Source of the DNA: a virus
Lineage: Duplodnaviria > Heunggongvirae > Uroviricota > Caudoviricetes
Direction: 5' to 3' (one strand)
IMG/VR virus record: IMGVR_UViG_3300024999_000035
Location: 64,001-128,000 of that record
Length of the DNA: 64,000 nt
This document shows positions 15,345 to 18,633 of the stretch, piece after piece. The notes under the pieces are model-generated. The model saw only the letters and a program-made list of their open reading frames with translations. It ran no database searches and was not told the DNA's origin. Positions within the stretch are counted from its first letter, which is position 1, and the number at the start of each line of letters is the position of its first letter. The position numbers and the translations under genes were made by a program.

Positions 15345-15704
15345 TTAAATTTCTTTATATGCTTTAACCAATTCTTCACCAAATTCTATATCTTTTCTAA
15401 TTTCACCTTCTACCGTTTTCTCATATTCTTTTATCTCTTGTTCGCTTAAATATTTTATGGCAGTAGGACACACATAAGTAACATTGACTTGCTTAATTTC
15501 ACCTTTGAATAATATATAAGTTGCTATGCTAAAATTAGATATTATTGCAACACTTAATAAAACTACAACCAATTCACTTTTAGGTATAATACCCTCTAAA
15601 TTTATGGATAATTCAAATAAACAAGCCAACATTATAGATAATGATATTCCCCATATTGTTCCTACTAGACTATGATTTAAATTATAATTAAATTTCTTAA
15701 ACAT
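15345..15704 (-). CDS. Hypothetical two-TM membrane protein
   Basis: Two hydrophobic segments; RBS. Confidence 0.6.
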   Translation of the reverse strand: MFKKFNYNLNHSLVGTIWGISLSIMLACLFELSINLEGIIPKSELVVVLLSVAIISNFSIATYILFKGEIKQVNVTYVCPTAIKYLSEQEIKEYEKTVEGEIRKDIEFGEELVKAYKEI

Positions 15705-15757
15705 TATTTATCTCCTTTCTCTAATCCTTCGAATACAATATTTCATTGTATAATATA

Positions 15758-15830
15758 TACTTAACTAACTTAACACAACTCATCGAAACTCAACTCAAAC
15801 CAACATATCTAAACCAAACCCAAAATGCTT
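15758..15830 (-). ncRNA. Sixth pentamer-repeat unit (putative guide RNA) after the accessory gene
   Basis: AAGCATTTT separator, then 11 regular NN-G(T/A)T periods (15767-15821) plus 2 degenerate periods. Confidence 0.8.
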
Positions 15831-15837
15831 ATCTTAA

Positions 15838-16302
15838 TCAAAAACTATTACTCAACACCAATTTACTCTTCTTTTTATTTAATAATTTTAACTCTGTGCA
15901 CCCACCAGCAATCATAGCATGAAGTGTCTTTGCTCTATCGGAAACATGTCTAAATGCTTCTAATCCCTCTTTTGACATTTCATTAACAGGGGCATATTGC
16001 AATACTTGATACCCCTTATCAATCTTATTAAATCCACTCTTAATATGTTTTAAAGATATATCAGTATATTCATCTGGATTAACGATTGAATATCCTTGAC
16101 CCGCTAAAGATTTAATAGTTTTACTTGCTTCAAGTAATTTCTTTTTTGTTTTACCAATAATAGAGTAATATTTTGGTGTATTTTGACTTTCTTTAATAAC
16201 TTCTTCAATTTCGCTATGTAATATTGTGGTAGCATAATCCATTTTTATAATATACTCAAATAGCAATTCCCATTTTTCTTTTTTGTTTACTAATTCATTC
16301 AT
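15838..16302 (-). CDS. Accessory protein (154 aa) embedded between array units, possible wHTH/coiled coil
   Basis: ATG at 16302 after AAGGAG; the track start at 16377 lies inside the array. Confidence 0.75.
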   Translation of the reverse strand: MNELVNKKEKWELLFEYIIKMDYATTILHSEIEEVIKESQNTPKYYSIIGKTKKKLLEASKTIKSLAGQGYSIVNPDEYTDISLKHIKSGFNKIDKGYQVLQYAPVNEMSKEGLEAFRHVSDRAKTLHAMIAGGCTELKLLNKKKSKLVLSNSF

Positions 16303-16333
16303 TTTTATATCTCCTTTATTATTTATTTTGCTT

Positions 16334-16682
16334 AAAGTGCCTAACTTAGCGAAGCCAATCGCAACACAAATTAACAAATCACAACGGAACTAAACTCGTC
16401 ATATCTGAACCTAAAATGCTCAACAAAACATATCTCATCTTATCTCAACATATCTGAACAAAACGAATCTCACCCCAACATAGAATTCATAACCTAACCC
16501 ATCTTGACTTACCTCATCGCATCTGAACGTATCTAAACGCAACTCGAAATGCTCAACTTAGCAGAACGTATCCCATCGTAACTCATCTCACCACATCTCA
16601 ATAAAACACAACATAAAATACTCAACCTAACTAATACAAAATAATAAAACTTAACACATCTGAATTTAGCAGATCCAATCCA
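16334..16682 (-). ncRNA. Array of five putative guide RNAs with 5-nt periodicity (G[T/A]T + NN), VIPR-like
   Basis: Units 16624-16680, 16555-16614, 16491-16545, 16422-16481, 16343-16412, separated by GAGTATTTT, GAGCATTTC, ATGAATTCT, GAGCATTTT, AGGCACTTT. Confidence 0.85.
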
Positions 16683-16693
16683 AAAACGCCCAT

Positions 16694-17272
16694 CTATTCT
16701 ACTTCTTCTACAACCGCAACAAATTGTCCATATTTAGGTCTGCTATCACATAATCCTACATATTTACCTGCAAAATCAATGCTTTGAATTACAGCTTCTA
16801 GATCAATTTGAGACTCTTCATAATTAACAAAGAAGGTAACTTGCCATGTATCGAATCTGGCTCTAGTTCTTAAAATTGAAGCATTATTTACTTTCATAAC
16901 TCTAACATCTCTGTACTTTAAATCTGCTTTCAATTGTTCTTTGGTAAGATTTTCTCCATATGCAAAAGGTATGTATAATGGTTCAACTGATAAGAATTTC
17001 TGAATTGCTGTACCTTTCTTAATAGATTTAGCTCCATTTCTAATTGTGGCCTCTACATTTTCTGCTGGCATAAAAGTTCCCATATTATCTTTCCAATACA
17101 AACCGCATTCCCACTCTAAATCTGCTATCATTTCATGATCTTCATCAGTTTTTGTTCTCTTACCCGTATATTTCTTTAGTTCCTTAGTTAGAGGATGAAG
17201 TGGGTTAACTCCTTGGTTTGAGTGCATAATTAATGGGGTAATACCTTTCCATGTAACTTTAAGTTTTTTCAT
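16694..17272 (-). CDS. RAMP/Cas7-like RNA-binding protein (putative Vipr-type effector)
   Basis: KGITPLIMH beta1, PAENVEATIRNGAK helix, RTRARFDTWQVTF, C-terminal Gly-rich loop AGKYVGLCDSRPKYGQF; array starts about 12 nt after the stop. Confidence 0.8.
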   Translation of the reverse strand: MKKLKVTWKGITPLIMHSNQGVNPLHPLTKELKKYTGKRTKTDEDHEMIADLEWECGLYWKDNMGTFMPAENVEATIRNGAKSIKKGTAIQKFLSVEPLYIPFAYGENLTKEQLKADLKYRDVRVMKVNNASILRTRARFDTWQVTFFVNYEESQIDLEAVIQSIDFAGKYVGLCDSRPKYGQFVAVVEEVE

Positions 17273-17318
17273 TTTTAAACTCCCTCTTTCTTTTTAATTA
17301 TTTATTGCTTACAAGTAA

Positions 17319-17347
17319 ATAATAACATGTTTATAGTAATTTGTCAA
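17319..17347 (-). promoter_or_regulatory. sigmaA promoter of the RAMP-array cassette
   Basis: TTGACA-17-TATTAT with extended TG. Confidence 0.85.
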
Positions 17348-17388
17348 TAATTATTTATTGATTTAAGCCCGATAAAATATTTGTTTCA

Positions 17389-17932
17389 TTACCAAAGAAT
17401 ATTTTTCATTATTTCATCTAATAATCTTTTAAATAAAATATTCATACCACCAATATTTAATCGATATTCAAAATTAACAATTATGTTTCTTAATTCATTT
17501 GCTAAATTATTTCTACCCTGTAATCTTGCGTCTTTAAGTTTTTTATTGTATTCTTCCCTAGTCATAATGACTTTTTCTATTTCAACTTCTTGCATTTCCT
17601 TAATGATTTCCATCTTACCACTCCTCCCTCTCTTTAGGATTCTCCCAATCTAAAAATTCCTTCTCTGCTCTTTCTCTACATTCTGGACAAAATCCTCTAC
17701 CCATTCCATCTGTACATAAATGAGCATTGCCATTTTTACCACAATACCAACAAGTATAAAAACTATTTTGTTTTGATGGATGCCAAGGACTGTTTGTACT
17801 ATCTTTATCTATGAATAAATGCCCACATTCTTGTTCAAACTCTTCATCAGTCATATTTTCAATGTGATCTGCGACTAATTTTAATTTTTCTTCCATTGGT
17901 AGATTTAATTTTTCTTTATCTGTCAATTCCAT
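17389..17932 (-). other. Two small hypothetical ORFs (17389-17613, 17615-17932)
   Basis: Coupled ORFs; the second has CxxC pairs. Confidence 0.6.
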
Positions 17933-17949
17933 TTATTTCACTCCTTTAT

Positions 17950-18633
17950 TTATAACATCACAATATCATTATAAATCAACCTATGTTTCTCATCAATCCA
18001 TCTGTCCTCGTGATAGTGTCCAAAATACCATTTCTTATAATCTAATTTCTCTTCTAATACCTCAAAATACTTGTTAATTGATGTTAAACTCTTTACCCAT
18101 AGTCCTGCCATCAACTTCTCGAAAATACTCTGAGAACAATCGTGTGAAATCACATAATCCACTTGAAAATTATGCTTTTCTAGATTATCTAATCCTTCTT
18201 CATATTCAGCATTTGATGGCATTTCTCGTTTCCACCATGATTTACCTTCTACTCTGTGTTGCTTATCAATTGAATCGGCTCCACCAAAAGTAAATATCTT
18301 CTTTCCATTAATATTAAAAATTTGACCACGCATTAAATGCATTACACTATCATTAATAAAATGTACTTTTCCACCATTCCATATTGAGACTGGAAGAGAA
18401 TCTAACATGTCATGATTCGAGTGATTACCATCACAAAAAATTGTCGTATATTTTTTATCATTTAACCACTTTAACCAATATTTTTCTTCTTTCGAATTAT
18501 CCCATACCAATCCAAAATCTCCACAAATTATCATATAATCTTCTTTAGATAATTCCTTTTGTAATGGAAAGTTTGTCATATTAAATCTTGACATTCCCAT
18601 ACTCCCATGAGTGTCGCCTGTGCAGAAAATCAT
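17950..18633 (-). CDS. Calcineurin-like metallophosphoesterase (second)
   Basis: GDTHG, CGDFG, DGNHSN, GGADSID, SHDC, FGHYH. Confidence 0.9.
   Translation of the reverse strand: MIFCTGDTHGSMGMSRFNMTNFPLQKELSKEDYMIICGDFGLVWDNSKEEKYWLKWLNDKKYTTIFCDGNHSNHDMLDSLPVSIWNGGKVHFINDSVMHLMRGQIFNINGKKIFTFGGADSIDKQHRVEGKSWWKREMPSNAEYEEGLDNLEKHNFQVDYVISHDCSQSIFEKLMAGLWVKSLTSINKYFEVLEEKLDYKKWYFGHYHEDRWIDEKHRLIYNDIVML

Follow-up and report, generated by a model that had tools for sequence, protein, structure and literature searches.

What is the function of a 349-nt stretch of phage DNA (16334–16682) that follows a strict five-letter rule immediately behind the gene for a small RAMP-like protein? The stretch lies in the 64,000-nt segment analysed here (the window, positions 64,001 to 128,000 of IMG/VR record IMGVR_UViG_3300024999_000035, to which all unlabelled coordinates refer); the record itself is a complete 178-kb virus. 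A sequence-only reading of the window had taken the array for a series of guide RNAs and had likened it to recently reported VIPR systems. The comparison was correct, as the system is indeed published (bioRxiv 10.64898/2026.04.26.720920, 10.64898/2026.04.26.720927). [quoted passage not shown] The NN bases of the vrRNAs read double-stranded DNA, with one target base skipped per repeat, and thereby silence competing phages or satellites. Most of the loci are on viruses and consist of little more than vipr and a vap gene; they fall into seven types and obey "GGY/NN or a related consensus" (10.64898/2026.04.26.720920). Our analysis leads us to regard the present locus as, very probably, the VIPR system of a 178-kb groundwater phage, comprising a promoter, vipr, a non-coding guide array, a vap1-like gene and a sixth guide, and acting, by homology, through SUSP1-like silencing.

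Just 3' of the stop codon of the gene at 16694–17272, the minus strand parses into pentamers of two variable bases (NN) plus a G-W-T triplet, exactly as the sequence-only reading had described. The array and a solo unit beyond it are made up of the following features.

16628–16690, minus strand: U0, degenerate first unit, immediately 3' of the vipr stop codon; about seven good G-W-T periods, then AT-rich decay; a separator-like GGGCGTTTTT stands before it
16615–16623, minus strand: separator 1, GAGTATTTT
16555–16614, minus strand: U1, candidate vrRNA guide, 12 NN+GWT periods
16546–16554, minus strand: separator 2, GAGCATTTC
16491–16545, minus strand: U2, candidate vrRNA guide, 11 periods
16482–16490, minus strand: separator 3, ATGAATTCT, more divergent than the other four within the array
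16422–16481, minus strand: U3, candidate vrRNA guide, 12 periods
16413–16421, minus strand: separator 4, GAGCATTTT
16343–16412, minus strand: U4, candidate vrRNA guide, 14 periods
16334–16342, minus strand: separator 5, AGGCACTTT
15822–15830, minus strand: separator 6, AAGCATTTT, just before the solo U5
15767–15821, minus strand: U5, solo candidate vrRNA, 11 periods, beyond the vap1-like gene
15754–15762, minus strand: degenerate separator-like motif after U5, AAGTATATA; its counterpart in the sibling phage is AGGTATTTT

The four regular units (U1 to U4, within 16343–16614) measure 60, 55, 60 and 70 nt and hold 49 periods between them. Over these 49, the first triplet position is G in 47, the second is T in 26, A in 17, G in 3 and C in 3 (T or A in 43/49), and the third is T in 47 and C in 2, hence always a pyrimidine; the column counts thus agree with the earlier description of four clean, pyrimidine-ended units. 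The distinction it drew between constant triplets and variable dinucleotides is just as evident, with near-random NN columns (0.15–0.16 bits) against 1.7 bits in triplet columns 1 and 3. Autocorrelation at lag 5, a check that the same reading had proposed, reached 0.491 over 16334–16682 as compared to 0.305 ± 0.024 in 2000 dinucleotide-preserving shuffles (z 7.8; shuffle maximum 0.39). Values of 0.48, 0.47 and 0.43 were obtained for the array at lags 5, 10 and 15, and of about 0.27 at other lags, and no other 349-nt stretch in the window comes close to its lag-5 signal. Throughout the 178-kb genome, the only strong arrays of the NN+GWT kind were this one and the solo U5; the sole other run (8 periods with 2 misses) was at the level of shuffled genomes (0–4 runs).

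Unit lengths of 11–14 periods fit the published 9–16 per guide. The sequence-only reading had named a translated low-complexity ORF among the findings that would speak against guides; no ORF of more than 36 aa crosses the array, so that it is not such an ORF. Besides, the array RNA folded no better than its shuffles (z +0.69), and an Rfam search of the array returned no family, no ribozyme and no hammerhead, arguing against an array of the ribozyme-interspersed type. Given that U0 and separator 3 are degenerate, our reading does not require every unit to be active. Directly 3' of U5, at 15733–15751, lies a 7-bp A/T-rich hairpin (ATACAAT / ATTGTAT) that falls below the strength required in our terminator scan.

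Each unit keeps a phase of its own, and this phase shifts by −1 at every 9-nt separator. All five separators given in the sequence-only reading were recovered (separators 1 to 5 above), and every unit, the solo U5 included, has the motif at either end. Within the clade to which the window's Vipr belongs, the gap between units is exactly 9 nt in 22 gaps from seven loci (Vipr identity 47–100%), with the consensus R-W-G-C-A-T-T-T-Y, of which G3, A5 and T7 are invariant. If the phase of the unit before it is carried on, a separator provides one more NN and then G-C-A, that is, a purine at the Y-pocket position, where purines are excluded, followed by four U-rich bases that move the register by −1. 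We infer from this arrangement that the separator may end one filament and start the next, by virtue of the purine in the pyrimidine pocket and the −1 shift, and that its exposed U-rich linker could be the unprotected site at which the transcript is cleaved.

What kind of protein, then, is encoded ahead of the array? The remaining parts of the locus are these.

17319–17347, minus strand: sigma-70-type promoter upstream of vipr (TTGACA, 17-nt spacer, TG-extended TATTAT; 11 of 12 consensus matches)
16694–17272, minus strand: vipr gene, encoding the 192-aa Vipr, a minimal Cas7-like RAMP with the G-loop G-L-C-D-S-R-P-K-Y-G (PHROG 4652, PDB 36pp match, AF2 model)
15838–16302, minus strand: vap1-like accessory gene, 154 aa, start codon ATG at 16302, preceded by an AAAGGAG ribosome-binding site (phrog_5926, synteny, hhalign)

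In a phmmer search against PDB sequences, the 192-aa protein matched the SUSP1 Vipr protein 36pp over residues 1–186 (E 2.4e-25), at an identity of only ~30%. It is assigned to PHROG 4652, where its function is unannotated, and no Pfam family was found for it, a sub-threshold JHBP match being all that appeared. Its AF2 model (72 homologues in the alignment; pLDDT 96) resembled, in a Foldseek comparison with the PDB, Csm3/Cas7 of type III and VII complexes (E ~3e-6, TM 0.5–0.58). Among AlphaFold-DB clusters, ranks 1 and 3–6 were A0A661D0E2 (TM 0.94), X1U2U4, A0A0F9A1L0, A0A2D6XG06 and A0A1F4YLN4, which are exactly the five founding Vipr UniProt entries named in the discovery paper (10.64898/2026.04.26.720920). 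With homology to 36pp and the five founding Viprs among its six best structural matches, the "RAMP" protein of the sequence-only reading is a true Vipr. Its ORF is intact and its functional residues are conserved. It belongs to a populous family, with 2290 clusters at 50% identity reaching E <= 1e-3; the closest Vipr of an isolated phage is 38% identical, and a megablast search with the locus found nothing among isolated phages. Relatives at 57–64% identity occur in metagenome-assembled genomes (MAGs) of Lachnospiraceae and other Clostridia, while the window phage itself comes from groundwater metagenomes.

The 154-aa ORF 3' of the array is a Vap1 homologue. It is found in synteny with vipr in L001–L003 and L012–L017 as well, and a profile of its family aligned in hhalign with a profile of genes at the vap1 position (from Felixounavirus Andreotti, Pseudomonas, Rhodocyclaceae and other loci) at 98% (E 2.4e-13), the two having the motif G-x-G-Y-x-h-V-x-P in common. 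A single-sequence AF2 model of the ORF was too poor for a structure search (pLDDT 66). On the basis of the Vipr and Vap1 homologies, both protein families are common to the window locus and to type II VIPR. No terminator-like site was detected in 15600–17500, and with a promoter and no terminator ahead of the array, a single transcript of vipr and array is the simplest reading. Among the sequencing runs matched to this sequence, none was an RNA run. Neighbouring genes contain no cas domains, nor are there CRISPR repeats, Cas6, Cas5, a large subunit or adaptation genes around the locus. Upstream of the vipr promoter, 17615–18633 holds the genes for two proteins, a metallophosphoesterase of 227 aa (phrog_1649) and a Cys-rich, zinc-ribbon-like one of 105 aa; the second is kept in the sibling phage and was not found beside vipr in other loci. 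A Prevotella MAG (L017:2501-3889) carries vipr (with a C-E-M-R G-loop) and a vap1 homologue, with no period-5 array detected within ~1.5 kb on either side.

If the protein is a Vipr, why does its array not read G-G-Y? In the SUSP1 structure, H17 and D177 recognise G1 of the repeat, R138 and W178 flank G2, the Y3 pocket is formed by E71, M72, R179, C173 and T175, and K33 touches the backbone beside the skipped base (10.64898/2026.04.26.720927). Residues were mapped by means of an HMMER alignment that is ungapped around the G-loop. Compared with SUSP1, the window Vipr has kept H17, K33, E71, R137 (R138 in SUSP1), D176 (D177) and R178 (R179), and has replaced M72 by N72 and W178 by S177. Where SUSP1 stacks a Trp on G2, the window Vipr hence has a Ser, and its repeats have G at position 2 in just 3 of 49 periods; retention of the G1 and Y3 residues together with loss of W178 fits a repeat that keeps G1 and Y3, but not G2. 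The suggestion of a divergent subtype using GWT, made from the array alone, thereby gains a counterpart in the protein. As GGY>GAY is listed among the substitutions that abolish silencing in SUSP1 (10.64898/2026.04.26.720920), function with G-W-T would require a change of the pocket.

This relation extends beyond the window. We assembled 25 loci from IMG/VR, GTDB genomes, public assemblies and one isolated Felixounavirus and called their arrays without assuming a motif; 21 loci had arrays. Wherever Ser occupies the W178 position and an array is present (12/12 loci), the repeats have a base other than G in second place (T/A, T, C/T or C). With Trp, Tyr or Phe at that position (5 loci), the second base is G in 90–95% of repeats, and with Cys, Ala, or Asn in a D-N-R loop (3 loci) in 87–90%; the pooled range for loci of the W, Y, F, C, A and D-N-R types (7 loci) is 87–95%; the E-N-R clade, with Asn at the W178 position (2 loci), has 62–73%. 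In a quick maximum-likelihood tree of 160 Viprs, whose deep support is weak, the well-supported branches require Ser to have arisen at least three times, and the Ser lineages with arrays are likewise three (the window clade, L034/L043 and L033). A further clade, with H17Q, D-to-E and E71Y/M72A, has x-G-A/NN repeats, a covariation that supports the repeat register. These associations are correlations, that of Ser drawn across related proteins, and may be causal. We tentatively propose, as something possible rather than probable, that one residue of the G-loop (SUSP1 178, Trp/Tyr/Phe as against Ser) dictates which base comes second in the handle, that Ser Viprs use a naturally orthogonal G-H-Y code with at least three origins, and that the window's clade employs a 9-nt stop (purine in the Y pocket, −1 shift) in place of a pseudoknot cap.

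Two other groups of loci are of interest in this respect. Viprs of another clade, at 41% identity to the window protein (L005:3600-4100, L007:3580-4480 and L008:3580-5100; H17Q, C-E-N-R G-loop, E71Y/M72A), have x-G-A/NN pentamer arrays behind them; the last of the three fixed bases is here a purine, and the separators are AT-palindromic, of the GGTTTAA..TTATTAA type. This looks like a further non-canonical code for VIPR. In L008, a 245-aa ORF with a DNA-methyltransferase-like SPPY motif (L008:4012-4749) splits the vrRNA array into halves; it is absent from the otherwise near-identical L007. The second case is a Lachnospiraceae MAG (L016:3130-3420) whose Vipr belongs to the window's clade (52% identity) and combines Cys for Ser in the G-loop with canonical GGY repeats; it offers a natural near-isogenic contrast for the Ser rule.

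How stable is the array within its own lineage? Two IMG/VR contigs, L001 and L003, encode a Vipr 100% identical to that of the window, with DNA identities of 95% in vipr and 93% in the vap1 region. Their array yields no blastn alignment with the window's array and consists of six different units built from the same triplets and separators, and their version of U5 differs by two changes, both at NN positions. In contigs from the same groundwater runs, 16323 is joined to 16698 via 408 other letters, versus 374 here, and both forms of the array co-occur as DNA contigs in the same runs. In runs X1 and X4, the variant with the other array had about twice the contig depth of the window's variant, with dozens of SNPs in vipr and vap1 (15700–17400). 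More widely, arrays of the same grammar follow Vipr genes of 34% to 100% identity. Homologous loci had been proposed as the place to look for conserved triplets with turnover of the NN bases, and this is the pattern that the sibling and the related loci display. With this wholesale swap between near-identical flanks, the array behaves as an exchangeable cassette bounded by the vipr stop codon and the vap1 ribosome-binding site. Such replacement between co-occurring siblings is what one would expect to see in a population at a locus caught up in an arms race.

What the guides might read was addressed by target searches and by the composition of the NN bases. In the genome of the phage itself, the guides' top matches did not surpass those of guides with shuffled NN order at skips of 0, 1 or 2, and guides of the sibling and relatives gave nothing above controls against the genome of the window phage. 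IMG/VR was scanned under a 1-nt skip rule with exact seeds of 9–10 NN (18–20 bases), a seed length that renders the target searches insensitive. U2, U3 and U5 had no exact-seed matches there. Six matches of U1 lay in unrelated proteins that encode DV[DE][DE]TGTLK and were judged to be chance, favoured by codon bias. The best candidate for U4, and its sole seed match there (extending to 23/28 NN), was in a RuvC-like resolvase gene of a provirus (L021:9719-9760; IMGVR_UViG_2507149024_000001), with the skipped base at the wobble position; with about 1–3 seed matches expected by chance, it does not stand above that level. Among JGI metagenome contigs, U4 had no match, and three matches of U2 were unrelated and did not extend. 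U4 (<=3 mismatches) was not found in five Clostridia MAGs carrying relatives plus 401 sampled Clostridia genomes, nor was U3 (<=2 mismatches) in the 401 sampled genomes.

The 199 NN of three arrays fit sense codon positions 1–2 of this phage's ORFs with a gain of 57 bits over genome dinucleotides, and this model beat the next one by 48 bits. In published VIPR, the skipped base falls on the wobble position (10.64898/2026.04.26.720920), and skipping of the wobble base here as well would produce a fit to codon positions 1–2. It also hints that the guides are in sense orientation. The codon-like composition could instead reflect preferences of the RNA or the protein. Both the skip rule and the target class are thus predictions that draw on homology together with NN composition.

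These observations allow other explanations to be weighed. The locus might be a VIPR-family system that works unlike SUSP1, following another skip rule, targeting RNA instead of double-stranded DNA, or binding without silencing. Its G-W-T handle, its lack of a pseudoknot tail and its Ser in place of W178 all differ from SUSP1, no 1-nt-skip target emerged from IMG/VR, JGI metagenomes, 401 Clostridia genomes or sibling phages, and the discovery paper notes VIPR types with nuclease or helicase accessory genes (10.64898/2026.04.26.720920). Yet the window Vipr conserves the thumb Arg and K33, the residue that contacts the backbone beside the skipped base, its accessory protein is a homologue of Vap1, as in the silencing type II systems, and a fit of the NN bases to codon positions 1–2 is itself a prediction of the 1-nt skip; the empty searches, for their part, needed exact seeds of 18–20 bases. 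We consider a departure from the SUSP1 mode of action unlikely on this balance.

More improbable still is that the array has no guide function in this phage, being either a relic, inert or in decay, or a pentanucleotide microsatellite prone to slippage. The degenerate U0, the divergent separator 3 and the lack of an identified target would suit such an origin, but a microsatellite would homogenise the NN positions, which differ as sharply from the triplet columns as described above. Nor would a relic be expected to keep unit lengths inside the published range, to recur with the same grammar behind Viprs from 34% to full identity, to be swapped as a whole between siblings with triplets and separators retained, or to follow an intact vipr with conserved functional residues. 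One might also suppose that the period-5 DNA itself is a protein-binding or structural element (iteron-like or bent DNA) and not an RNA gene, as the repeat is known here at the DNA level only. This seems to us scarcely credible: the pattern is strand-specific, co-oriented with vipr and located behind the vipr promoter with no intervening terminator, the homologous SUSP1 arrays were demonstrated to be Vipr-bound RNAs (10.64898/2026.04.26.720920), and a 5-nt period with a −1 shift per unit misfits helically phased DNA sites.

Under the preferred reading as a SUSP1-like VIPR system, one promoter would drive vipr and then the array with its four regular guide units and degenerate first one. By homology with SUSP1, Vipr protomers would polymerise along each guide RNA, one per pentamer, burying the constant triplet and displaying the two variable bases. 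Reading of double-stranded DNA would then fall to the joined NN bases, with every third target base left out, and the predicted outcome is silencing of a competing mobile element.

VIPR was described only in 2026, and experiments so far have all been on GGY systems of Enterobacteria and Pseudomonas phages. Against this background, a large AT-rich groundwater phage provides a clean, naturally occurring case of a different handle, with a protein change that fits the solved structure, and its locus offers a very compact format for a multi-guide array. The pairing of Ser177 or Trp with G-W-T or G-G-Y constitutes a directly testable rule for guide recognition by Vipr. If the orthogonal code holds true, co-resident VIPR systems could avoid the hijack of each other's guides, guide hijacking being a known counter-strategy of satellites (10.64898/2026.10.15.759431), and the Ser-type Vipr with its handle would represent a second minimal programmable scaffold.

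How does the locus compare with known systems? It is closest to type II VIPR as found in Escherichia phage SUSP1 and a Pseudomonas fulva prophage, with which it has in common a Vipr homologous over its full length, including the residues that contact G1, Y3 and the skipped base, a Vap1-family gene, tandem pentamers of three fixed and two hypervariable bases (11–14 per guide), a solo guide apart from the array, and a phage-borne setting devoid of cas genes and of self-targeting. It differs from them in its triplet (G-W-T versus G-G-Y), in Ser versus Trp178 and in gene order, which is vipr, array, vap1 and solo guide in the window but guide, vipr, vap1 and array in SUSP1 and P. fulva. Spacing is different too: units in the window lie 9 nt apart with a −1 shift, whereas tracts in the SUSP1-like Felixounavirus locus L032 are ~60 nt apart, including a ~40-nt pseudoknot tail. 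SUSP1 vrRNAs carry this structured 3' tail of ~40 nt, whereas the window units, given their 9-nt gaps, the lack of excess folding and the lack of an Rfam match, do not. Having neither the canonical GGY nor the structured tail, the locus falls outside the SUSP1 and P. fulva clades, despite common Vipr and Vap1 families.

With class 1 CRISPR-Cas (types III and VII), the similarity concerns Cas7/Csm3, in that both proteins have an RRM/RAMP fold, a thumb and a glycine-rich loop and place one protomer per fixed step of the guide RNA. The step itself differs, being 5 nt with three buried bases for Vipr and 6 nt with one flipped base for Cas7/Csm3. Unlike class 1 CRISPR-Cas, the phage-encoded window locus contains no CRISPR repeats, no Cas6, Cas5 or Cas10 and no adaptation genes. 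We therefore rejected membership in class 1, as only the Cas7-like fold is common and the locus has no repeat-spacer array or partner cas genes.

Non-canonical VIPR arrays have been recognised before. A survey based on the periodicity of language-model entropy reported GAC/NN, CAC/NN, WGT/NN and TGH/NN arrays in 21 clusters (10.64898/2026.10.21.760802). These resemble the present array in having a period of five, in lying beside Vipr-fold proteins and in a fixed triplet that departs from GGY. The text of that paper names neither G-W-T nor G-H-Y and, unlike our analysis, does not tie the motif to a G-loop residue. The discovery paper additionally lists the repeat classes NNNGG, YNNNG and NNNNG as well as "staggered" arrays (fig. 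S18; 10.64898/2026.04.26.720920). Like these, the window array has a relaxed consensus and is compact, the end of one vrRNA being the start of the next. Written in that paper's register, the window motif would be Y-NN-G-N, which is outside the three classes named there and subsumed just by the loosest, NNNNG. Thus, both the VIPR kind of system and non-canonical triplets within it are already published, and what the present locus adds is the covariation of Ser or Trp with the handle and a 9-nt separator that shifts the register.
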